A stretch of 64,000 nucleotides of DNA, from the NCBI GenBank assembly GCA_964016885.1, contig OZ024742.1, positions 234,174,001-234,238,000 on the forward strand, read 5' to 3'. The number at the start of each line of letters is the position of its first letter. Position 1 is the stretch's first letter. This DNA is from Eledone cirrhosa. Its lineage: Eukaryota. The translations under genes and the position numbers were made by a program. Of this stretch, positions 18,101 through 46,600 are shown piece by piece. The notes below the pieces were generated by a model. The model was not told where the DNA came from. It was given only the letters and a program-made list of their open reading frames with translations, and did no database searches.

Positions 18101-21100
18101 TGAAATTATATACATCAAATTATAGTGCATCATATTTATTATGAAAAAATGATCTAAAACAGAACTGATTCTTAGAAAAACTCTAGCTTTAATTCCATAT
18201 TATTTTATGATTTTATTTCTTACTAATTAAAGAACAACCCAAAACTGTTAGAAAGAACTGGATTGATAAGTCATGAAGTTGCTTTATTCAGTAACTAACC
18301 TTTTCTGTTTTCCATAAGATGAATTTATAGAAAAACCTGGAATCAAACTGTTTTGTTTTTAGGATTTAATGCTATATTGAGAAAGCCAGTATACTCATGA
18401 ACCTAACAACTATTTATTTGCCCTGTTCTTTATAGAATGTTGGGACTGTTATTTCATACTCTAGTATGTTGTTGAAAGCTGAATTTCAAATATCGTATTA
18501 AAGTGATTTGATCTAGCTTTATCACGACCTTCTTTGTCTACTCAATTTTACTCACAAAGATTGAATGAACCTGAGACTATGGTATAGACACCTGCCCAAG
18601 ATGCCATACAGTAGGATCAAACTCATTAATTGAAATATCAACTGAACCAAAAATTATAAAATCTTTTCAGGTCTAGCTTTTGATCAATGGGACTTAGAAT
18701 ACTATACTAAATTGTTCCAAGAAAAAATACAGCGGAATCCGACAAGTGTTGAATGTTTTGATCTAGCTCAGTCAAACAGGTAAGTTTAGTTTATTCTTTA
18801 GAAAAATATTAATCTGTTTGGTTAATTACTCAGACATACCATTGGCATGAACAATAAATAGTTATGTCAGTGTTAAAATATTAAATATAATGACTATCAA
18901 AGATCTAATTAGAAATACTCATGCAGTGAGGAACAGTCAGCATTAGCTTTGTGAATAACATTATTTTAATAATTTTGGTAGCTTTGGTGCTTGCCAGGAA
19001 TGACAAAATTATTAGAGCGACAAATGTGTTGAACGCCAGAAGATATAACAACAACAACCGACGACTGTGTCTTCTACCATGCCTGTTGAAGGAGAACAAC
19101 AACAAAAACCGACCGTCAATACGGAGTTTGAGGAAATACGGCAAATGATTTCCGCTTTAAGTCAAGAAATAGCGGAAATAAAATCAAGTGTTCGTGTAGA
19201 ACCCCACAATGAGGGATCTTACCGGAGTGCCTTGATAAAAAATCTCCGCGTACCTCATGTTGAACCTAGACGCATTGAGAATGCCACTGAATCTGCAAAC
19301 CACGAAGTGATTGCCATTGGTGTGCCGGAAGACATAGTTGATCTTCAGGCATTTGCTGCCAGTTCATCCAAAGACCTGGGCTGTGCTCCTGCAAAGGGTG
19401 CTCTACGCCTTGGCCGACCAGGCCCGAAACCCAGGTTAATTAGACTGTCGTTTACAAACTCAACTGAGGCACGTTCATACATTGTAGCCTCTGATAAAGC
19501 TAGGCGTGAAAGTCGGATTGCTTTCCGAACACGTCCTGGTCTTCCACCTGATGTCCACCCAAAGTTGTGTGTTGCAGCTTCCCTAAACCGCAGCTCGGCA
19601 GAACATGAAAGCTTCAGCCTACGAGATGATGGGCAGATATGGAAGTTTGTTAAGGCTGGCGAATCATGGAAAAGAGACACCAGCTGGTCTGAAAACACTG
19701 CACCCACAACAACTGACAATAAAGAAACTGAAAAAACTCAGGGAAACTAAATCAGAACAACCTGCCATCCCTTGCACATAATCATAGACTGGAATCAAAG
19801 TACAAATTGTTGTCCTTGAATGCACGTAGTCTATGCAATAAGATTCATCTTTTTGACTCCTACGTCAAAAGTATCAACCCGGACTTCATTACAGTCACGG
19901 AAACTTGGGCACATCCCTTACTCTGCGATGGGGTTTTCAGCATGACTGGCTACAACCTGTTTCGTAAAGACCGCATTAATCGTCGTGGTGGTGGTGTAAT
20001 GGTCTACGTTCGGTCAAATCTGTCGGCAATTCCTTGTGCTGATTTGAACCAATCACAGCAGGAAGTTTTTTTCTGCGATATACGTATGACCATGTCAACA
20101 CTGCTACTTGGAGTCGTTTACCGTCCCCCAAATTACCATCAGGACACTCAACTTTGTGATATCCTCAGAGCTGCTGCCAGGAAGACAGCCACTTATGTTT
20201 TCATTGCAGGTGACTTCAATCACCCTGAGATTGACTGGGAGACCTTTCATTGGCCGCCAAGTGCAAATGACTTCCTTGAGCTGGTGCTGGACTCGAGTTG
20301 GTCCCAGGTGGTCACCTCCCCAACGAGAGGTGACAACACTTTGGACCTACTCTTCACCACTACTCCTGAAACGGTCATTAGTGTTACTGCTGAGGAACCT
20401 TTAGGTGACTCTGATCATGCTATGATCATTGCCAATCTATCCCTCATGGGCAGTAACAAGAACCACAACCATCTCCAAACTGCTCACTTTGACTGGAATA
20501 AAGCAGACTGGAACTGTTACTGCACCGAGTTGCAACGGCCAAACTGGCTTGAGTTCTACGACTCTGGAGATGTCAACACTGTACTCCAGAACATCCTGAG
20601 CTCAATATGGACAGCATGTGCAGCATCGGTGCCACGTAAGCAGAAAAAACATCCCAAAAGCGCAATTTGGGAGACTGCAGCAGTCCGTCTTGCCAGAAAA
20701 GAACGGCGCAATGCTGAATGTGAGTACAAACTTCACAAATCAGACATTAATAGGAAGAGGCGAAATAGATCGTCCAACCACCTCAAACAGGTGACAAAAA
20801 AGGCAGTGCTTCAATTTGAGCAGCACATAGCAACCAGCCCTGACAGTAAGGTGTTCTAGAAGTATGTTCACTCAAAGCACAGGCCTCACTCTCCAGTTGG
20901 TCCTCTTCGCAATCCCCACACAAGCCAGGTTACTGACGACCCCAAGGAATGCGCAGAGCTCATTGCTGAATGCTATACAGGCATTTTCACTATTGAAGAC
21001 CAGAGTGTGCCATCTCCACCACCTATGACACCGCACTCTATTACAACCATGGAATTTACACCTGCAATGCTGCAACGTCACCTAAAAAATAAACGCAACC

Positions 21101-22654
21101 ATGCCTCTCCTGGTCTTGATGGTGTTACGTACCTGCTTCTTAAACGTGGTGGGTACTTCCTTCTACACCAGTTATCACGCTTCTTCCAATTCTGTCTGAA
21201 CAACAGTGCTACTCCAGAACAGTGGAAAACTGCCAGTATCATTCCTCTGTTCAAAAAGGGTGACCACACATCACCTGTGAACAGTCAGTCTTACTAGTTG
21301 CATCGCCAAACTGATGGAATCCTGTGTCAGGGAAACACTTTGGAACTTCTGGAGCTCTCACAGTCTTATCCGGCCCTCGTAATTTGGATTTATCCCCAAC
21401 TCCAGCTGCTGTGATCAACTTATAGAGTTTCTTGAGGACATCACCCGGATCACTGATGGCGGCTCATGGGTGGATGTTGTTTACCTTGACTTTGCGAAGG
21501 CCTTCAATTCTGTGCCACACAAAAGGCTTATGGCAAAACTCTCTGCAATGGTTGTGAAGGATGATCTTTTTAACTGGTTGAAGTCCTTCATTCTCAGTCG
21601 AAGAGAGGTAGTCACGGTTCTGGGACAGCATTCCTCACCATATGAGATGTCATCTGGTGTACCACAGGGATCTGTTCTTGGCCCCCTTTTGTTTGTGGCA
21701 TATATTAATGACATAGATGCCAACTTAAGGAATGCCACAGTACTAAAGTACGCAGACGACATCAAGCTGTACCTTGAGATAAAAAGGACTGATCCTGAAC
21801 ACTATAGATCTTGCTTGCAGTCTGACCTGGACACAATGCAACAATGGATCTCAGACTGGCAACTCAAGCTAGCTGTGGACAAGTGCACCACCATGCATTT
21901 TGGGAGTAAAAACCCAGCGTCCACATACTCCCTCCACAGCACTAATATCAAGAAGTCTTCCTGTGAACGTGACCTGGGCATTACGGTCAGCAGCGATTTG
22001 CGTTGGACGAGGCACGTCTCTAAAATTGTCAAGAAGGCCGAGGGTGTCTTAGCATCACTCAGCAAGACCTTTGTCAGCCGCTCTCCAGATATCTATTTAA
22101 GGCTGTATACAGCTATGGTGCGACCACACTTAGAATTTGCATCACCAGTCTGGAACCCCTATCTTGCTCAGGACATTGACCGCCTGGAAACTGTTCAGAG
22201 ACGTGCAACCAAGCGAATACCCTCCATCAGGCATCTACCATACTCTGAGCGCCTTGCTTCCCTGGGCATGGATTCATTGAAGCTCCGACGCCTGGCAACT
22301 GACTTGGTAAACACCCACAAAATTGTTAACCATGTTGCCAACAACAACCCTGAGTACCTTTTTGATTTCCATGTGTCTAACACACGTAGGCATGCCCACA
22401 AAGTAAGAAAACAGCACAGTTCCCATGACTTTCGGAAACATTTTTTCACGCTCAGAGTTGCTGAAGCATGGAACAAACTACCTGCATCAGTTGTTAGCTG
22501 TCGAGACACTGCATCCTTTAAAGCCTCCATGCTTCCCGAGATCCGCCAACACTACAGCTAACACATACACACATGTACTTCCCTGACATTTGTGTATTAT
22601 TCTATGTACTATATTGACGAGTTGTGGTGCACCTGAGCACTTTACACAATAATT

Positions 22655-22687
<33 letters not shown>

Positions 22688-25600
22688 CTATATGTATTTT
22701 CAAGTCTCAAAATTTGTCCTGTTTCCTATCAGTAATTTCCCTATGATCTTAATAAAAAATCGAAAATATTCTATCTCCTTATTCCCAATCTCTCACACAG
22801 AGCCTAGCTCCTTTTTTTAGAAACCTGGTTAGAACAGGGTTAAAATATGTAGCAGTAGTAAACATGATGAATAACATATTTCCAATTCCCAAGTAAACCC
22901 AGTTTACTACAACTTCCCATTTCTTGTCCCTAAATAAGACTTTTGTATTAAGTTGAAAAAGTTATTTTTTCATAATCAAGTACCGTTTATATTCAAATAT
23001 AAGCTAACCCCCTATTTTATTTCTGAGAAGAAGGCAAAAATCTAAACCCCATTTATAAGCTGAGGCAGCTAATCAACACATCTAGATGGTGCTGTTTTTA
23101 AATTATCATAAAGGAGAATATATTTATGAAGTTTTGAGGGTCCGACAGATTTATCCATGTCGGAGCCTCAAAAAAAAAAAATCTTCTCGTATTTAAACTG
23201 CTATTATTTGTTATATGTTCGTTTAACTTTACAATAATACGGATGAATCTGTTGAACCGTTATAAAAATAATCTTCTCATGAACTTTCCCATTTCCCTCC
23301 TCCCGCCCCCACACGCCACCATTGCTATTTGGTCCAATCACAATTCAGCGGTTTATAGTATGTTTCTCTTACCTATTTCTATCACAAAGCCACAGGCTCG
23401 GCTATTACTCCTTAAATTTAGACCTGGTTGCTTTTCGATATGCTAAATAGACTACATAATTTGGAGAGTCTGAACAATCTGAACACACAATGACAATGTC
23501 AAAGATAAAGATAAATTCACCTCCTGCTGCCAGACGAGAATGCAAGGACTCCTCTTTATTTCAGACACGGATAGCCAACATAATTCCATCTCCCACACCC
23601 TTCACTGCGCCTTCAACCCATCCTTTCCACCCACCCAACGAAATCCCAAACTTCAGAGTTGGTACCATGAATGTAGGCACTTTGAAAGGTTATAGAGATG
23701 CTTGAACGTAAGGAAGTTGATGTTTGTTGTGTTCAAGAGACTAGGTGGAGGGGTGGGTCTGCTAGATTCATTGTGGGTGAAAAACGATGCTATAAACTTT
23801 TCTGGGTGGGAAATGACAATGGGCTGGGTGGAGTAGGAATTATGTTAGCAGAAAAATGGGTAGATAAGGTAATTGCCGTAAATAAAGTGAACAACAGAAT
23901 AATTAAAATAAGACTAATCCTAAATAGAACTACTGTGACAATAATATCCACTTATGCACCCGATTCTGGCCTTCCTGACGCTATAAACGACAGATTCTAT
24001 GAGTCGTAATGCTCACTACCTCCCAAATAACCGACAATGACTACATAATTATTGCTGGCGACCTAAATGGTCATGCTGGACAACATTGTGATGGCTATGA
24101 CAGAATCCATGGAGGCTATGGGTTTGGTACTAGAAATGAGGAAGGCTTCAGAATCCTGGAATTCTGTGACGCTAATAACCTAACTATCTGTAACACAAAC
24201 TTCAAAAAACAAGACAATCACTTGATCACTTATAGATCAAGGGAACACGCCAGTCAGATAGATTATATCCTTACCAGAAGACGTGACAGAGTGTCTGTTG
24301 TAAACACTAAATCCCTCTCCCGTGAAGAATGCACCTCCCAACATAGCCTCATAGTTAGTGACCTCATAGTCAGGACTAGACATACTCGACAACAGAGGAG
24401 GACTACCCTGAGGAGGACTACCCTGAGGAGAAGAATATGGAAGTTGAAGGACGCCATAGCCAGTAACAAATTTAAAAGCATATTACTTGATGCTTTTGAG
24501 AGTAAGGAAGAGCAATTAGAGACGTATAAATATAGAGGAACAGTGGGAATTCTTGAAAGTTAACCTGCTGAAGGTGACAGATGAAATCTGTGGCTGGAGC
24601 AGACCTATAGGCAGGAGGAGAGTAACTTGGTGGTGGAACAGTAAGGTGGAGGAGTCAATCAAGGCCAAAATCAGGCTTGGAAAGTATGGTGGGATGGAGA
24701 GAAGTAGAGAACACTATCAAGTGGCCATGAGAAAAGCTAGGAGACAAGTGTACTTTGCAAGAAGGGAAGCAGAGGATAGAAAGTTCTACAACACGAGGAC
24801 CAAAAACGTGAGGTGTTCAGGATTGCTAGACAATGTGTCAAGAAAAACCATAATATTGTTGGAAGAAGTGTGTCCGTAATGATGATGGTGTACTTGCATC
24901 ACTGATATTGATGAGAGACTAAATGAGGAGAATAAATGGGAAAAAGATAGTCTGCCCCAAATCAATCCAATAGAGGGATCAGCAGTGCAAGTTAAAGGTA
25001 GTATAATAAGTAAGGCAATCAAAGATATGAAGACAGGCAAGGCAGCTGGACCTTTGGAGATACTTGAGATGTTGAAAGCATCTGGAATGGTGGGACATAC
25101 TATGGTCACCCGGATAGCAAACCAAGTAATAGAGAATGGGGTCATACGAAATGACTGGCGTAGCAGCATCATCATTAACTGCTACAAGGGTAAAGGAGAT
25201 GCTCTAGATAGGGGAAACTATAGAGGCATTAAGTTAGTTCACCAGGTCATGAAGGTCATAGAAAGAGTTATAGCGCAACTAATCAAAGAGCGAATTGATC
25301 TAGATGAAATGCAGTTTGGGTTTGTGTCAGGTGAAAGTACCACAGACGCTCATTTCCTTGTACGACAACTACAGGAGAAGTACCTAGCTAAAAGTAAACC
25401 CTTCTACTTAGCTTTTATTGACTTGGAGAAAGCCTTTGACAGAGTCCCCAGCTCCATTATCTGGTGGGCTCTTAGAAAACTAGGTGTAGATGAATGGCTT
25501 GTGTGAGCTATACAAGCCATGTATAAAGAAACAGTCAGCAAGGTTAGAATTAACAATGAATATAGTGAAGAATTTAGCGTAAAAGTTGGTGCTCATCAAG

Positions 25601-28600
25601 GCTCTGTCCTTAGCCCCCTCCTATTTATTATTGCCCTTCAGGCTACAACAGAGGAGTTTAAGACTGGCTGCCCATGGGAAGTTCTATATGCAGATGATCT
25701 AACTCTCATAGCTGAATCGATGGCTGAACTAGAGAAGAAATTCCAAACATGGAAGCATGGCCTAGAATCAAAAGGCCTTAAAGTTAACTTGTCTAAGACT
25801 AAAGTTCTCGTATGTAGAAAGGAAAATAGGGCACAAGTGCCCCCTGGGAAATGGCCATGCTCAGTGTGTAGGAAAGGAGTAGGCAGAAATTCCATTTTAT
25901 GTCCCAAATGCAAACTATGGCTACATAAAAGATGTAGTGGGATCACAGGTAAGCTATCTAAGAATGTAGATTATATATGTGGCCGATGCTCAGGTGCAAT
26001 AAGTAGCAAGTGCCCACAGGATACTAGCTCCTTCTATTGCCCAGATGGTTCTATAGAAATAGTGGACACTTTCTGTTACCTGGGTGACAAAATCAGCAGT
26101 AGTGGAGAGTGCTCTGAAAGTACAGTTTCTCCCTAAAAATGAAAGGCAGACTGTATGATGCCTGTATACGAATAGCAATGTTACATGGCATTGAGACATG
26201 GGCATTGTGTGCAGAGGACCTGCGCAGACTGGAGAGAAACAAAGCATGTATGCTCCATTGGATGTGTAATAGTAATATACGCAAAAAGCAAAACATAAAT
26301 GAACTAAGTGAGAAATTAGGAATAAGAGGGATCAGATGCTGTTTACTTGAAAGAAGACTACATTGGATTGGTCACGTGATGCACATGAAAGACAACAGGT
26401 GTATAAAAAAGTGCATGGCGATCAAAATTGATGGAAGTTACGGAGTAGACCCAGAAAAACCTGGGATGATTTGATAAATTCTGACCTTACACACTTGCAC
26501 TTCTCTAAGACAATGTCACTGGACCGAGATCTTTGGCGCCACGCAGTAATACAGAAGACCCACCTTGCCTATGTACAAAGCGAAACCTACAGTCAGTAGG
26601 CACCTCTTAACCAAATATACACCCCCATCTCACTACTCCACTCCATTCCCCACTCCCACCAACACCACCCTTTCTCTGTAAAGTTATGTTGGTACTACAA
26701 CATCCAGTCCAAAATAAATGAGGTCGTGTAGGTGTCACGACAAAAAAACACAGACGATGCTGTAATGTGGACATGTAGGTAACACGGTAAAAACCTCCCA
26801 GTCCACACTGTAAATGTGGTTAGGAAGGGCATCCGGCCGTAGAAAACCTGGCAGACAGTCCTATACGAGCGAGACACGGTCACCCGACCAATCTTGCCTC
26901 AAGTGGGACAATTCCCGTCTAAACCCATGCTAGCGTGGAAAATAGACGTTAAACGATGATGATGATGATGAAGTTTTAATATTTTAATGTTTAAAATGTT
27001 TTAAGAGTTATTACCACTCCATTATGTAATGATTTTTTTTACCAAATTCCGACCATTTTGAAAGCCTTATTCATTCAAAACAAATCAAAAACAATTGCAA
27101 AAACGAATTTCAGACAAAACTGAAGCCAGTGTAATATTCACCTTCAAAGTGAAATCAGTTTAATATTCACTTCCAAAGCAAAAATATTTTAGCACTTCAT
27201 TTATGTAGAATTTTGAAGTTGGTGAAAATCAACAAAATATTGACCTTAAATATAAACTGACCCCCATTTAACCATTTATTTGTTATTTTTTTTATTTTTG
27301 TCACATATTTCTCGGCTTATAAGCAAGTATATACAGTAATTACATTCAGAATTTGTGTGTGTTTTTAAGTGAACATAGTCGGCATTGGTTCTTCAAAGGG
27401 ATCATGATATTGGATGGAGAAATTCAAACAAAATCTTTGTTTCGTATGGTGATGGATACCCAAGATTTCAGCAATAACAATAGTGTCATTAAATTCAATG
27501 ATAATAGTAGGTAAGTAGATAAATATTTCTCATTCGTTTTCTTGCCATTCTCACAATAATTTTTCTTCAAGGATTGGATACTTTTGAAAATTTCAATATT
27601 TTCATAAATCATTGCAGGAAATGTTTTACTGTAGGATGTTATTGATCTCAACCTGGCCAAGGATACCGAATACCCTAGTGTTGCAATGAAGTAGTGATGC
27701 TGCCATGATAAAAATACAATGCACCCTGTCCACTTTTAAAGGTTGTAGTGCTGGATTTATGATAACATTCTCTCAGTGCAGTCTGTAAAGTGGTTGGCAT
27801 TAGTAAGAGCATCCAGTCATAGAAATCAAACCAAAAATGGAATGTATTAACAAGACTTGGTCACCTGACCAGTCTAGCCTCTGGACATGAGAATCTGTCT
27901 AACATATACAAGCATAGAAAATAGATGTTAAACAATAATGATGACAAGAATGGATTTAGGTGGACTGAAATAACCAGTTATTAATGCACAACAACAAAGA
28001 TAGGTGGTTTTCTTTGTTACTGAGTGTGTCGAATTACAAGTAATCTTGATGAGTGGGGAAACATTGTGAGACACATCCAGGATATGTTTTTACTTTGTAC
28101 ACTGTTAAGATCAACATGTTGATGTTATGGGTATATTTACTTCATATTTATTGTCTCCATTCATCTTATACATCTGATATCTCAACATTAATGTTCAGCC
28201 ACATTACATTGTAGTTGATTTTGCCAACCTCTCATACTTTGTGTATCTTGAGAAGACAATGCAAATCACTCCAGTGTCTACTTCCTCAGAGAATCCTAGA
28301 GATAATTACACCATAGGATTAACTGCAAATGTTAGGATTAGTTCAATTGTTCTTTTAACTTTCTTTTTATATTCATGCAAGCAAAAAAAAAACGATGATG
28401 AAGGCGATAACCTCCTCCAAGTTATATCAACTTTTTTCAAATACTTATATCCTGTATTTTAGCCTTTAGCACACTAGAAATTTTTATGAATTGCTTCCCT
28501 TGACACTGCATTATGTATTAAGGGGAGATTACTCTATTGGCGACATAAGGCACCTAAAACGTGCTAAAGATTAAATTAGGTACATTACATCAAAGGTGAC

Positions 28601-31600
28601 TAAAAGGGTTAACATAGGGAAGGGCATCCAACTGTGAAACATTGTCTTAAATCATCCTATGCCAGCATGGAAAAGTGTACATAAAAATGTTGGTGAGGAG
28701 GAAGAAGAGGAGGACGAAAATGATTAAAAATTGAAATTTTTTAAAGAAATGTTTTTGTCAAACATCTTTTTATTAATCTCTCAACTCGTGTGAAAAAAAT
28801 TAAACCACATTAATGATAATGTTCTTTATCAAAGATGTAAAACATTTGTGTTAAAATATACTAATGGCTTGATATTTTGCCTTGAGAATTTTAAAACTTT
28901 ATTCTGCTGTAATCTGAGTAGAATTTGCCTGACATTCCCATTTTGAAAAATATTTATATGTGTATCCTGGTTTTTAGAATAGGTACACCATGTGTTGTAT
29001 GAGGTGACTATAAGGGTTAGAATGAGGAAGAATATACTGCTGTGAAATATTGTCTTAAACATCCCATCCAATCCATGCCACCATGGAAAAGTTGACGTAA
29101 AAATGAAGATGATAATGCCATATGTATACTGGTTTTTAGAATAGGTACACCATATTCCTGTGTCGGAAGAGGTAACTAAATCAGTTGGTGTCAGGAAGGG
29201 CATCCAACTTTAAAACATTGTCTGATACCATCCCATCAAACCCATGAAAAAGTAGATATAAAAATATTGCTGATGATAATGATGATTTAAAATTTTTGTG
29301 TTTATTGTTTTTATCTTTCTAACCACCTAATGATATCTTAATACATTAAGAGCTATAATGGAATATTGCTCCCACATCTGGGACAGTACTGCTGCTACTG
29401 CTACACATACAAACATCCTAAACCACATTTTCCAAAACACTATGTCACTGAGACACATGGAATCACTCTCCATTTCACTTCACTATCTCACCCTAATATA
29501 TGCTGCCTCTTCACCCTGCCTTTTCCAAGCTATTACAATGGCCTCTATTCCTTGGAGTTAACTGGTGGTATATCACTTCCTCCCCATCACCCAAATAGTG
29601 TCCTTCAAACACCACACTAACCACTTTTCAGTTCTTCCTTCTCAATACATTATCCATTTAGAATTCCCTGCTGGCCCTCGTTTATTATTTTGTCCAAAGT
29701 TCTTACATATATCTTCATATTTTGATTAAAACTAAATGTTAGAGAAAAGTTTGTTTTTTAAACATACGTATTCAGTTATTAATTAAATTTCGATTTAAAT
29801 GATTTGAAGGCCAAACAATGCATGTATAACATCTTTTTAAGATCTTATATTCACTGATGAAAGTCTTTTAGACTGAAAAATTTATGAATAAAACATTACA
29901 TTTAATTTTATGAGCATTGTTTGACCTTCCAATGATTTAAATGTATTATATCAACACACTTTCAAAAACTGCGTCGAAACTCAATAATATAAAAATTCCA
30001 ATTGTTTCAGTGCTATTGATGGCTTTGAAGTAAGTGTCCTGCTACCTGAAGAAAGTTCCAAAGCTAGTCCTTTTGTGGTAAAAGATAAACAAAAGAGACA
30101 TATTATTTTTACTGCAGAGACTCATAACTTCCCTACAGGTAACTATTAAAAGTTATAAGAAAATATATTTAAGTGAAGAGAAACAGTTAGTAGTGTGTGT
30201 ATGTGTCAACAGATGTCATAGATATCAACAACCTATACCATTGCTACCCAAATGACACAAGCCTGGACAACCCCAAAGGATTTCAACTTGTGAGGCTCAT
30301 TCCTGCAGGTAGTTAACTCAGCCCTAATATGGGGGGGGGGGGGGGGTCTAAGGACGCCAGAAGTTTCCAATGCTGTAGGTTCAACTGTTAATATATATTA
30401 ACCAAACAACTTGATGTTAAGGTACTGGACTATTGACCACATAAGTTATAATCTGTGATGTTTAAGATGTTAATATCTAACCATAGACGTATATAAATGT
30501 TAACATTTGTACCTTTTCTTATTTCAAATTCTGATGAATCTGTTTATTTGGATACTTAACACCAGACAGCCTGTAAGGATTTAACTGAAAATATCTAAAA
30601 ACTGGTTTGTTGATTCAAATGTTTATAGTATCTTTACTAGTAGACTGATCATTGTGAAAATGTGCAATATTAGAGAAGGACGGAGCTCAATTCTTCCTCT
30701 CTCTCTCTAACAAAGAAATTGGTTTTGTTCTGACCTACAGACCTTGTTTAAAATGTCTAAGAAACATTGTCACAGTGGTGCCCTTATGACTTCATCATGA
30801 GTTATGAATCCATACATACTAAATCATTACAGAATGTTAAGAGTTGATGTTAGATAAATAAATATTAAGACTTCATTTATGACATAAACATTGTTTATTA
30901 CTCAATTGTTATGTCTTGATAGGTGTTGCTCCTTTTCCTGGGGCTACCACAGGTACAGGTGGTAGAATTCGAGACGTTCACTGCACTGGACGAGGTGCAC
31001 ATGTTGTGGCAGGCACAGCTGGTTACAGTTTTGGTAATCTTAATATACCTGGTAAGGAAAGTATTAATTTCATTTGCTGTTGTTTTTTTCTTATTTTAGC
31101 ATTGTTACGTTAACCATTTAGCATTTAAACCAGCCGTATGCTCATCTTTTAATATTTTCTTGTTTCAATTTACTTTAAAATAATTACTTTATTTCACTAT
31201 TATACAACTCAATAACTGGCACATTCATAGCTCATTTCAAACATCCATTGTAGGTGAAATATTAAATATAAGGTAGTAAGGCAGTCAATCTTTCTTCTAC
31301 ATTCCGTACATAATTGTACCTGCAATCATCATATAAATTTGTTCTATATACATCTACCATATCTAGAGCCCAAGTTATTGTTGTTCAACCCCAGGTCAGC
31401 TGTGATCAAGTAGACCCATAATGAAAGGTATTGCAACCTTGACCATTACATCTTTCTATTTTGGCATACATAGTTTAGACAGTGTATCTTGGTCTACATA
31501 TTCTATAAGTACTTATTTTAGCATACATAGTATAGGCAGTGTATCTTGAACTACATATTCTATAAGTCCTTTTCTTTTTAAGATTGTGAGATGTAATTTA

Positions 31601-40600: not shown

Positions 40601-43600
40601 AAGACAAGAATAAAAGGACCCCTCTTTATTTCAGACACAGATGACCAACAAAATACCGTCTCCCACACCCCTCCCTGCCCCTCCAACCCATCTATCCCAC
40701 CCTCCCAACTTCAGAGTTGGTACCATGAATGTAGGCACATTGAAAGGTCGCTCAAATGAGGTTGTAGAGATGCTTGAACGTAAAGAAGTTGATGTTTGTT
40801 GTATTCAAGAGACTAGGTGGAGAGGGGGGGTCTGCCAGATTCATCGTGGGTAAAAAACGATGCTATAAACTTTTCTGGGTGGGAAATGACAACAGACAGA
40901 GTGGTGTAGGAATTATGTTAGCTGAAAAATGGGTAGATACGGTAATTGACGTAACTAGAGTGTGAATGACAGAATAATTGAATTAAGACTAGTTCTAAAT
41001 AGAACTACTGTGACAATATCTGCTTATGCACCCCAATTTGGTCTACCTGACGTTATAAAGGACAGGTTCTATGAGATGCTAATGCACACTACCTCCCAAA
41101 TAACCAACAGTAACTACTTAATTATTGCTGGCAATCTAAACGGCTACGTTGGACAACATAGTGATGGCTATGATGGAATCCATGGAGGCTGTGGGGTTGG
41201 AAATAAAAATGAGGAGGGCTTAAGAATCCTGGAATTCTGTGACGCAAATAGCCTAACTATCTGTAACACAGACTTAAAAAAACGTGAAAACCACTTGATC
41301 ACCTATAGATCAAGGGAACACGCCAGCCAGATAGATTATATCCTTACTAGAAGATGGGACAAAATGTCTGTTGTAAACACTAAATCCCTCCCCCGTGAAG
41401 AATGCACCTCCCAACATAGCCTAGTAGTTAGTGACCTCATAATCAGGAATAGATGTACTCGACGACAGAGGAGGCCTACCTTGAGGAGAAGAATATGGAA
41501 GTTGAAGGACCCCATAGCCAGTGACAAATTTAAAAGCTTATTACTTGATGCCTTTGACAATAAGGAAGAGCAATTAGAGACGTGCAATATAGAGGAACAG
41601 TGGCAATTCTTGAAAGTGAACCTGCTGAAAGCAACGGATGAAATCTGTGGCTGGAGCAGACCTATAGGCAGGAGGAGAGTAACTTGGTAGTGGAACAGTA
41701 AGGTGGAAGAGACAATCAAGGCCAAAAAGCAGGCTTGGAAAGTATGGCAGGATGGGGGAAGTAGAGAGCACTATCAAGTGGACAGGAGAGAAGCTAGGTG
41801 ACAAGTGTACCTTGCAAAAAGGGTAGCAGAGGATAGAAAGTTCAAGCATGTTCTACAACGTGAAGACCAAAAATGTTAGGTTTTTCAGGATTGCTAAACA
41901 ATGTGTGAAGGAAAACCGTGATATTGTCGAGGAGATGTGTGTCCGTAATGATAATGGTGTACTTGCGCTCACTGATACTGATAAGAAGATAGCCTGGAAG
42001 TGTCACTACGAGAGACTTTTAAGTGAGGAGAATAAATGGGAAAAAGATAGTCTGCCTCAAATCGATCCAATAGAAGGACCAGCAGTGCAAGTTAAAGGTA
42101 ATATAATAAGTAAGGCAATCAAAGATATGAAGACAGGCAAGGCAGCTGGGCCTTCGGAGATAGTTGCTGAGATGTTGAAGGCATCTGGTATGGTGGGACA
42201 CACTATGGTCACCCGTATAGTTAACCAAGTAATACAGAATGGGGTCATACCGAAAGACTGGCGTAGCAGCATCATCATTAACTGCTACAAGGGTAAAGGG
42301 GATGCTCTAGATAGGGGAAACTATAGAGGCATTAAGATAGTTGACCAGGTCTTGAAGGTCACAGAAAGAGTTATAGCGCAACTAATCAGAGAGCGAATTG
42401 ATCTAGATGAAATGCAGTTTGGGTTTGTGTCAGGTAAAAGTACCACAGACGCTCTTTTCCTTGTACGACAACTACAAGAGAAGTACCTAGCTAGTAAACC
42501 CCTCTACTTAGCTTTTGTAGACCTGGAGAAAGCTTTTGACAGAGTCCTCCGCTCCATTATCTGGTGGGCTCTTAGAAAATTAGGTGTAGATGAATGGCTT
42601 GTGAGAGCTATACAAGCTATGTATAATGAAACAGTCAGTAGGGTTAGAATTAACAATGAATATTGTGAAGAATTTAGTGTAAAAGTTGGCGTTCATCAAG
42701 ACTCTGTCCTTAGCCCCCTCTTATTTATTATTGCCCTTCAGGCTATAACAGAGGAATTCAAGACCGGCTGCCCATGGGAACTCCTATACGCAGATGATCT
42801 AACACTCATAGCTGAATCAATGGCTGAACTAGAGAAGAAATTCGAAACATGGAAGCATGGCCTAGAATCAAAAGGCCTTAAAGTTAACTTGTCTAAGACT
42901 AAAGTTCTAGTTTGTAGAAAGGAAAATAGGGCACAGGTGCCCTCAGGGAAAAGGCCATGCTCTGTATAGGAAAGGAGTAGGCAGAAATTCCAAAGTATGG
43001 GTACATAAAAGATGTAGTGGGATCACAGGTAAACTATCTAAGAACGTAGACTTTATATGTGGCCAATGCTCAGGTGCAATAAGTAGCAAGTGTCCAAAGG
43101 ATACTAGCTCCTTCTATTGCCCAGATGGTTCTATAGAAATAGTAGACACTTTCCGTTACCTGGGTGACGAAATCAGCAGTGGTGGAGGGTGTTCTGAAAG
43201 TACAGTAGCCAGAGTCAGAATGGGATGGAAAATGTTCAGAGAGCTTATACCGCTGTTGGCCACAAAAGGTTTCTCTCCAAAAATGAAAGGCAGATTGTAT
43301 GATGCCTGTATATGAACAGCAATACTACATGGCAGTGAGACATGGGCATTACGTGCAGAGGACCTGCGTAGACTGGAAAGGAACAAAGCATGCATGCTCC
43401 GTTGGATGTGTAATAATAATATACGTGAACGGCAAAGCATAAATGAACTAAGTGAGAAATTAGGAATAAGAGGGATCAGATGCTGTTTACTTGAGAGAAG
43501 ACTACGTTGGTATGGTCACGTGATGCGCATGAAAGACGACAGCTGCATAAAAAAGTGCAGGGCGATCAAAATTGATGGTAGTTACGGAGTAGGTAGACCC

Positions 43601-46600
43601 AGAAAAACCTAGGATGATCTGATAAATTCCGACCTCACACACACCTCTCTAAGACAATGTCTCTGGACCGAGTTCTTTGGCGCTACACACTAATACAGAA
43701 GAACCGCCTTGCCTATGTACAAAGCGAAACCTACAGTCAGTAGGCACCTCTTAACCAAATATACACCCCAATCCACTACCCCTACCCAATCCTCCCACTC
43801 CCACCAACAGCACGAGATAATGAGATCGAGATCATGTAGGTGTCACGACAAAAAACACACACAGTCCACGCTGTAATGTGGCCGTGTAGGTAACACGGTA
43901 AAAAGTTCCCAGTTCCACACTGTAAATGTGGTTGGTGTTAGGGAGGGCATCCAGCCATAGAAAACCTGCCAGATAGTCCTATATGAGCGAGACCCGACCA
44001 GCCTTGCCTCAAGTGGGACAACTCCCGTCTAACCCATTGTAGCGTGGAAAATGGACGTTAAACGAAGATGATGATGATGATGATGTATTGTATATATTAT
44101 ATATACAGATAAAGAAGTGCAGGAGGTGGTGCATAAATGGTTGCACGACCAACTGAAAAGCTTCTTGGAGAGAATATGCAAGCTTGTGGACTGCTGGACT
44201 AAGTACATCGAAAAGGAAGAAGACTGTAGAGAAATGACGTACTTGTTTAATCACTGCTTTTGTGTAAATAAATTGACAAAAACAAGAGTGCAGATAATTT
44301 TTTACTTTCTCTCTTGTATATGTATATAGGAGAATTTTGCTTGATGGCTTTGATAGTAAGGAAGAAGAAATAGAGATGTTCAGTATAGAGGAGCAGTGGG
44401 GGTTCCTAAGGGATAACCTTCTGAAAGTGACAAACAAGATCTGCAGAAACCAAGGTCCCAGGGGTGGATGTGGCAAAGACCAAAAGACAGGCATGGAAAA
44501 ATAGAGGTAGCCGGTACCCTTACGAAGAATCTAGAAGAGAGGCTACACAGCAAGTATACCTGGCAAGAAGAGAAGCAGAAAATGAAAAGTTTAAGTATGT
44601 TTTACAATGTGAGGACCAAAAAAGAGAAGTGTTCAAGATTGCAAGGCAATTTGTCATGGAAAACCGTGACGTTATCGGGGAGAAATGCATCCGTAATGAC
44701 AATGGCACACTTGCCGTCACCAACATTGAAAAAAAAGTTACATGGAAATGCCACTATAAGAGGTTGATAAGGAGGAAAACAGCCTGTCCTAAGTGTACTC
44801 AACAGAAAATCCAGCTGTACGAGTAAGCATCAGTCTAGTAAGTAAGGCAATGAAAACATGAAGAGGGGTAAAGCAGCTGGACCATTGTAAACCAGTGACT
44901 TGTCGTAAACCAAGTAATGCAGAATGGTGTCATTCCCAGACTGGAATAGCAGCATCATTGTCAACTGTTACAAAGGTAAAGGAGATGCCCTAGAGAGAAG
45001 TAACTACAGAGGCATAAAGCTGATTAACCAGGTCATGAGAGTTACAGAAAGAGTGATCACACAACTGATTAGAGATCGTATACACTTAGAAAAGATGCAA
45101 TTTGGATTTGTGTTGGGGAAATGCACGACCGATGCCCTCTTCCTTGTGAAGCAAATGCGGAAGTACTTGGCTAAATGCGAGCCGCTCTACTTAGCATTCG
45201 TGAACCTAGAGAAAGCTTTTTAGAGTCATTCCATAATCTGGTGGGCCCTCAGAAAACTAGGAGTAGATGAGTGCCTTGTGAAGGCTATACAAGCCATGTA
45301 TAGGGGAGCAGTCAGCAAAGTTAGGATTAACAACAACTGTAGCAAGGAATTTAGTGTGCAGGTTGGTGTCCACCGGGGCTGTTCTTAGCCTTCTCCTGTT
45401 TATCATCGTACTACAGGCTATGATAGAGGAGTTTAAGGCCAGCTGTCCATGGGAACTCCTGTACACAGATGATCTTACACTCATAACGTAGTCTATGGTG
45501 GAACTAGAGAAGAAATTCTAAACATGGAAGCAGGGCCTAGAAATAAGAGGTCTTAAAGTCAAACTAACAAAGTCTAAGGCCCTCGTAAGTAGAAGAGAAA
45601 ACAGAGCCCTGACGCCCCTGTGGGGTGGTGGTGGCCTTACTCAGTGTGTAAGTAGAAATTCCTTCCTCTGTCCCAAATGCAAACTAAGGGTACACAAGAG
45701 ATGTAGTGGGATCTCAGGAAGTTAAGCTAAAAATGTAGGTTTTACATGTAACTGCTTCACCGGAGCAGTAAGCAACAAATGACAACAGGAAACAAGTGTT
45801 GTCAAATTCCTGGAAGGTTCTACTACTTGGGTGACCAAATTAGCAGCAGAGTTTGGTGTTTTGAAAGTACAATAGCCAGAGTAAGAACGGAATGGAAGAA
45901 GTTCAGAGAGCGACTACCACTGCCAGCTACAACAGGCTTTTCTCTCAAAATGAAAGGCAGACTGTATGATGCATGCTTACAAACAGTAATGTTGCATGGT
46001 AGTGAGACCTGGGCACTATGCAGAAGACTTGCATAAATTGGAAAGAAATGAAGCTTGCCTCCATTGAATGCGTAATAGTAATTTACATGAACGGCAAAGC
46101 ATAAACGAGCTAAGAGAGAAACTAGACATAAGAGGAATCGGATGCACTGTGCAGGAGAGGAGATTGCATTGGTATGAACATGTGATGCATATGAAGGCTG
46201 ACAGCTGTATAAAAAGGTGCAGTGCACTCAAAGTCGATGAAGCCTTGGAGAGCCCCAGGAAGACTTGGGATGAGGTGATAAAAGTTGACTTTGCTCAATT
46301 GCACCTCAAAGACAATGACACAGGACCAAGATCTCTGGCATTATGCAGTAAATCAGAAGACCCGCCTTCCTATCAGCACAGGTTGAAGCTGAAGCATACA
46401 TATATATATCTAGTGAAACCTCCAGCCCACACTTCAAAGTGGTCATGTAGGATTCATGACAAAAAGCACCCAGCAAAGCACTGTAAATCTGGTTGGTGTT
46501 AGGAAGGGCATCCTGCCGTAGAAACCAAACCAAAAACAGGTCTGTGTGAACACGGTCACTTGACCCAACTTGCCTCAAATAGGACATCCTGTCTAACCCA

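Follow-up and report, generated by a model that had tools for sequence, protein, structure and literature searches.

The minimal type I hammerhead motif at positions 29848-29890 (forward strand) of the 64,000-nt stretch of Eledone cirrhosa DNA analysed here, hereafter the window, forms the 3' end of an insertion with two arms and a truncated 5' side; the inserted sequence is an old dispersed repeat, likely a non-autonomous Penelope-like retroelement, and the motif is likely catalytically silent in the pre-mRNA of PFAS, the purine-synthesis gene that hosts it.

The hammerhead motif and its position in PFAS

By direct reading of the sequence, stem I is formed by 6 bp between TATTCA (29848-29853) and TGAATA (29885-29890), the core box CTGATGA lies at 29854-29860, and stem II comprises 5 bp between AGTCT (29862-29866) and AGACT (29870-29874), with an opening A-U pair and a 3-nt loop. 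One extra A (29861), placed after A9 and before position 10.1, is occupied by A, G or T across the copies of the repeat family described below. GAA (29875-29877) is followed by the palindrome AAATTT (29878-29883), corresponding to helix III, and A17 is A29884, the predicted cut lying directly 3' of it at a site that agrees with the UH rule for cleavage. The complete core, the two stems and the palindrome claimed in the original prediction are thus confirmed by reading. A point absent from that prediction is the 10.1-11.1 pair, which is A-U where the consensus has G-C; A-U is also the commonest pair at this place in the family (17 of 23 rows).

A full descriptor including the stems matched once in the 64-kb window. 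Any match with 4+4 pairs occurred in five of 300 dinucleotide shuffles of the window, and none of the 300 equalled the combination of at least 5 bp in stem II and at least 6 bp in stem I; a loose core-only pattern is not rare, with three matches in the window vs 7.2 expected. The 150-nt piece 29793-29942 folds at z = -5.98. Rfam, at gathering and E-value thresholds, recognised no hammerhead there.

The host gene was identified as PFAS, the peptide of a downstream exon being 92% identical to PFAS of Octopus sinensis. The tblastn exon map obtained with octopod PFAS, together with the junction letters, places the end of coding exon 5 at 27510, coding intron 5 (GTAAGT ... TTTCAG, 2.5 kb, forward strand) at 27511-30010, and coding exon 6 at 30011-30138 on the same strand; a contig from run X4 spans the exon 6-exon 7 junction, joining 30009-30136 to 30921-31039. 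The exon map therefore bears out the location on the sense strand of intron 5, with the motif ending 120 nt upstream of the exon 6 acceptor and the cut site 126 nt from exon 6. Broken LINE-type endonuclease/RT frames also lie inside PFAS introns (19732-22561, 23460-26474, 40614-43612 and 44417-45223), one judged by eye to be CR1-like and several RTE-like, and very high-copy repeats, with contig depth in the tens of thousands, occupy neighbouring intron DNA at 30566-30675 and 29160-29257.

A dispersed, ORF-less repeat family with Penelope-type architecture

The genome was searched with 29780-29960 and then successively outward, both up- and downstream. The search with 29780-29960 returned 57 matches besides itself at 77-95% identity; the block common to the copies corresponds to 29840-29991, and other copies reach further upstream of the hammerhead. 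A 571-position family profile, constructed from natural copies, matched 153 of 193 loci, representing 96 distinct places with the window included, which is a lower bound on copy number. A tight pattern of core plus stem II found 17 exact matches in the genome, vs none for the reversed control, and matched none of the 37 arms recovered through upstream sequence; from 17 vs 0/37, we infer a few hundred arms, about 200 or more of them spanning the ribozyme. Median divergence from the column majority is 13.6% over 42 scored arms, compared with 7.4% for the window copy, which is among the 11 best tail matches and hence near the family norm overall. Judged from its sequences, the repeat family is old. 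Pieces of it, of about 58 and 49 nt, have been locally amplified into minisatellites at two loci (L096:967-1306 and L133:1449-1647).

The hammerhead motif is the commonest state within the family. In a second subfamily form, loop II has 4 nt and the palindrome is the shorter AATT; among 34 parsable arms, AAATTT (5) and AATT (6) are the two commonest classes of helix III palindrome, and the retention of a palindrome despite the change in length suggests, on these small counts, selection while the element was active. Stem covariation within the family was not found, with one of 11 pairs showing two-sided change and 187 of 500 shuffles scoring as high, in a comparison of low power (17 of 23 rows had been found by a pattern fixing part of stem II); among unselected arms, 307 stem pairs were the same, 73 broken, 26 one-side kept and six both-side kept. 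Lack of covariation among copies is as expected if decay came after insertion. A chance resemblance in AT-rich DNA could draw on the negative Rfam result and on the missing covariation, but it is extremely improbable given that no shuffle out of 300 equalled the motif, that the motif is the family's commonest state, and that two subfamily forms of different length both hold the helix III palindrome.

The window insertion consists of two arms. The right arm (29840-29991, forward strand), delimited by the genome search and its block boundaries, covers the last 152 nt of the family at its 3' end, corresponding to positions 392-552 of the 571-position profile, and is 5'-truncated at AGATCT. The left arm (29777-29835, reverse strand) is, by pairwise alignment, an inverted copy of the same element end bearing two internal deletions, one of which removed the hammerhead: its reverse complement aligns blockwise to 29839-29989, with a AGATCTTA start, a 28-nt block and a TCGAAA end. 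The 26/29 inverted repeat noticed earlier is real, its 29-nt halves at 29793-29821 and 29914-29942 being 90% complementary. The left half is the best-kept block of the left arm (pair probability ~1.0 in context), and the right half is, by complementarity and family alignment, ordinary family sequence 3' of the hammerhead. The notion that the repeat boxes a cassette gives way to that of a second, inverted and internally deleted copy of the same repeat end. In the predicted fold, the two arms pair into a stable hairpin of 29 bp (pair probability ~1.0) 68 nt upstream of the acceptor. This animal group shows heavy A-to-I editing, and the hairpin of 29793-29942 is a possible ADAR substrate.

Across the family, 5' starts are scattered along the whole profile and the 3' end is fixed, ending sharply at CGAAACTCAAT and followed by AT-rich DNA. 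The 3' ends of 97 arms fall mainly at two preferred places about 45 nt apart, 31 at profile positions 500-519 and 47 at 540-564, with seven between and 12 elsewhere, profile ends being imprecise. The segment 29944-29991 (forward strand) is accordingly an optional element tail, present on about half of the arms. Arms stand head-to-head at 28 of the 96 places and tail-to-tail at one; the window's own short left arm lies below the profile threshold and outside the 28. No target-site duplication was recognised by eye at the window insertion. The 28 palindromic places would suit a MITE or foldback DNA transposon whose terminal repeat encloses a hammerhead-like sequence, yet such an origin is highly improbable: at 68 of the 96 places no second arm reaches the threshold, the arms are variable in length and in centre, the same 3' end makes up both of them, the window insertion shows no visible target duplication, and tandem units exist. 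Variable 5' truncation and one-armed copies contradict it as well, and hammerheads built this way are characteristic of Penelope elements (PMC4209133; this and the other works cited are drawn on for the parts available).

Stepwise outward searches from the family reached a TA-rich spacer and then the body again, with no ORF met on the way. Four of the 96 places (L002, L118, L171 and L193) close the unit, with the 3' end, the TA-rich spacer and the body start on one strand. The spacer of L002, about 230 nt, yields a unit of ~0.8 kb; those of L171 and L193 are longer, apparently from nested repeats, and in L193 the terminal part flanks the body on both sides, which amounts to a partial tandem or pseudo-LTR arrangement. 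The shared non-coding sequence spans at least 560 profile positions, and in four long copies no stop-free frame exceeds 112 codons. Reading frames in the upstream part are short and differ from copy to copy, and were rejected as coding. The 96 places include partial tandems but no array with two or more complete, intact units. Five places have a common sequence just past the tail, with a donor-like GTAATT, judged by eye, in three of them (L002, L040 and L171), which may represent the retained intron typical of Penelope-like elements at the boundary of pseudo-LTR and body; no spliced form was seen.

The original prediction had noted no Penelope ORF nearby, and tblastn with this genome's natural Penelope-type ORFs likewise detected no RT/GIY-YIG match in the window. 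The genome-wide search it proposed, for copies and for Penelope links, supplied the former but not the latter: no RT/GIY-YIG ORF flanked by the family was found at the 96 places (20 of them widened to 10 kb), and the family profile had no match at 38 GIY-YIG loci, out of at least 150 GIY-YIG matches in the genome. Penelope ORF remnants 2 kb from the arms of L173 and L169, two of the 20 widened loci, were judged to be separate insertions, with no family sequence downstream; on a rough estimate from 10,596 first-look candidates, chance alone would place about one Penelope-ORF neighbour within 200 kb. Because none of the copies is linked to a Penelope ORF, membership rests on architecture. These sequence features nevertheless make it well supported that the family works like a non-autonomous Penelope element. 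Between the two origins first proposed, a solo pseudo-LTR or a small non-autonomous element, the Penelope-type origin common to both is supported, and the evidence leans to the non-autonomous element because four places close a ~0.8-kb unit without an ORF.

An origin as a solo pseudo-LTR left by an autonomous Penelope-like element, with RT and GIY-YIG domains and with coding copies decayed or unsampled, would make the motif equally inert, and we regard it as unlikely. It agrees with the published minimal hammerheads, which are mostly single motifs from truncated elements (PMC4209133), and with the many Penelope-type ORFs in the genome; in addition, long copies may be missed where only the best candidates are scored and median divergence is 13.6%. 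It is opposed by the extent of shared non-coding sequence, by the four ORF-less closed units, and by the remnants near L173 and L169, which lack family sequence downstream, about one such neighbour being expected by chance.

Other minimal hammerhead families, with G10.1-C11.1, occur near GIY-YIG loci (L165:5695, L167:5633, L073, L086 and L090); the motifs of L165 and L167 hardly differ, which points to a possibly young family. In L160 (3774-7062), L161, L162 and L166, long open Penelope-type frames that terminate in GIY-YIG reach as much as 1096 codons from stop to stop, and L166 has two Penelope-type copies on opposite strands; the hammerhead descriptor had no match in these four loci.

Splicing context, activity and constraint of the window copy

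The end of the element lies about 20 nt upstream of the exon 6 acceptor. Branch points usually lie 18-40 nt from the acceptor, a window that for exon 6 corresponds to 29971-29993 and falls, for the most part, within the element's tail, so that the tail probably supplies the exon 6 branch point. The nearest upstream AG is at 29913, and the resulting AG-free stretch of 94 nt is the second longest among the 21 PFAS acceptors checked; the family's commonest letters include no AG within the last 100 nt. That it adds no acceptor is probably why the insertion was tolerated. Cleavage at 29884 would occur upstream of the presumed branch-point window.

The further suggestion that the ribozyme could cut the intron next to its 3' splice site is unsupported: the window offers no partner, the motif folds poorly in context, decay in the family looks neutral, and there is no covariation. 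No second hammerhead copy was found in the 64-kb window. Stems I and II are predicted to form well in the isolated motif; predicted stem I pair probabilities are 0.88-1.0 for the motif alone vs 0.10-0.25 in context, and the cleavage-ready fold accounts for 3% alone vs 0.1-0.5% in context, in predictions that ignore proteins and tertiary contacts. The AAAUUU duplex of helix III is calculated at +0.4 kcal/mol.

Among arms found via upstream sequence, off-majority cells amount to 56 of 512 (10.9%) in the core vs 350 of 2616 (13.4%) in the flanks (P = 0.15), and the ribozyme is intact in two of 37; the family's cores show a neutral-looking decay, like that of the flanks, as far as these alignments tell. 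The window copy differs from the family's commonest letter at none of 41 scored ribozyme positions vs 10 of 98 elsewhere, giving a Fisher P = 0.034 that is uncorrected for how the copy was found and inflated, because it was noticed for being intact. The chance of 41 unchanged sites is 0.012 per copy, so that, among a few hundred arms, a few intact copies are expected.

The insertion is also present in a second species, and it thus predates the species split. Across 29514-30391, a single contig (run X5) shows 71 differing letters and 50 gap letters; 14 nt are missing from it at 29820, 5 nt at 29912 and 1 nt at 29982. Contigs of run X4 did not cover 29834-29905, which is not evidence that the segment is absent. 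The 14-nt loss overlaps the inner competing hairpin. The 1-nt loss would, if its neighbours are unchanged, convert CTCAAT into CTAAT, which is closer to the branch consensus. Over 29834-29905 (72 nt, ribozyme included), the second species shows four other letters and no gap, fewer than the ~7-8 differences expected, although not significantly so (P = 0.07-0.20): a rough intron rate of 9.2%, assuming about five exon changes, gives P = 0.20, and one of 11.6%, from 22 differences in 190 nt among the rows listed, gives P = 0.07. Two of the four differences could have arisen on this genome's side, at 29896 and 29900, both of which lie outside the ribozyme.

Co-option, whereby the intact hammerhead would cleave PFAS intron 5 with the help of proteins or of pairing in trans and so lower or tune splicing, has several observations on its side, namely the sense-strand position 126 nt from exon 6, the unchanged ribozyme against 10 changes outside it, its retention in the second species, and the precedent of the intronic Cpeb3 ribozyme, which affects splicing (PMC10919898). 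We consider it very improbable nonetheless, as a few intact copies are expected by chance, the window copy is near the family norm overall, and the motif has no partner in cis, a weak helix III and competing folds; moreover, only fast intronic ribozymes disturbed splicing (Fong 2009, as cited in PMC10919898). Its most specific form, a splicing rheostat in which a hammerhead selected since before the two octopod species split cuts intron 5 upstream of the branch point supplied by the insertion, is very improbable. Folding predictions, family comparison, the missing second copy and the inactivity of published minimal hammerheads as monomers make cleavage of PFAS pre-mRNA by the window hammerhead unlikely.

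The likely silent insertion of a non-autonomous element would have arisen as follows. A ~0.8-kb unit would have been transcribed from tandem copies, and two hammerheads 0.8 kb apart would have acted either paired through the palindromic helix III or aided by the element's protein. A Penelope RT/GIY-YIG protein, provided in trans, would then have reverse-transcribed the RNA into AT-rich DNA, starting from the tail, with a back-to-back pair of arms as the product. The single copy in the window would have no partner and fold poorly, its intactness reflecting closeness to the family norm and its having been picked for being intact.

Relation to known hammerhead elements

The window motif provides a cephalopod example for a well-described class, and the family adds a small, apparently ORF-less Penelope-type entry for octopus repeat libraries. 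No description of cephalopod Penelope hammerheads was found in the literature searched, which was thin on subscription papers and did not extend to Repbase/Dfam; no cephalopod is among the entries of PMC4209133 supplement file 2, as far as that file was available, and Penelope-like elements have been reported in Octopus vulgaris, with hammerheads unmentioned in the available part of that report (PMC13282606). Co-option would carry much greater weight, as the parts of the literature examined show no minimal Penelope hammerhead regulating a host gene.

Weak activity of isolated motifs is documented for related systems. A single minimal hammerhead of Schistosoma had no detectable cleavage and its dimers were weak (PMC4209133), the hammerhead of an Anolis element cleaved only with its protein (PMC11167929), and eight of nine Xenopus dimer constructs were without cleavage (Li et al. 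2026, 10.64898/2026.07.22.740005). The minimal-hammerhead consensus, CUGANGAH ... GAAAN-palindrome-NUH, has G10.1-C11.1 in more than 80% of cases and thus not absolutely (PMC4209133 supplement), and the window motif matches it except at this pair. With the minimal hammerheads of Penelope elements (Cervera and de la Peña 2014, PMC4209133), it shares the type I topology, the full core, the extra base after A9, the palindromic helix III, the U-rich and AU-rich flanks and the occurrence mostly as single dispersed motifs, sometimes in pairs on opposite strands 100-700 bp apart. It departs from them in its A-U at 10.1-11.1, a minority form recorded in D. willistoni, M. japonicus and a Latimeria family, in a helix II of 5-6 bp, and in the lack of an ORF-linked copy here; on the kinetic effect of A10.1-U11.1, the available portions of PMC544870 and PMC2837043 contain nothing.

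A sense-strand motif inside an intron is likewise found among vertebrate intronic ribozymes, such as the HDV-like Cpeb3 ribozyme and the amniote intronic hammerheads. The Cpeb3 ribozyme, 9.9 kb away from the next exon, achieves cleavage as a monomer within 2-3 min (PMC10919898), whereas the window motif is a repeat relic that needs a partner, with differences in the second species not significantly below expectation.

Penelope-like elements are described with inverted copies truncated at the 5' end, with partial tandems and with a 30-40 bp tail that is optional (PMC8557442); two internal sites at which reverse transcription starts have been linked to this tail (PMC11167929). The family described here resembles the non-autonomous Chlamys element MRC1 (Craig et al. 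2021, PMC8557442) in being short and non-coding, with pseudo-LTRs and head-to-tail copies. Most of the non-autonomous Chlamys elements are similar at their 3' end to an autonomous family, a partner that was not found here, and most Chlamys elements have no hammerhead, unlike the present family (PMC8557442).

With animal non-LTR retrozymes, which are regarded as non-autonomous Penelope derivatives (PMC7229834; 10.64898/2026.07.22.740005), the family has in common a non-coding unit, a type I hammerhead, dispersed monomers and a unit length within the reported 51-972 bp. It differs from them in having no long tandem arrays among the 96 places, in carrying a minimal rather than canonical hammerhead, in its Penelope-type inverted arms and tail, and in being old and decayed. 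Retrozymes and the present family are alike, finally, in having likely been moved by Penelope proteins (Cervera and de la Peña 2020, PMC7229834).
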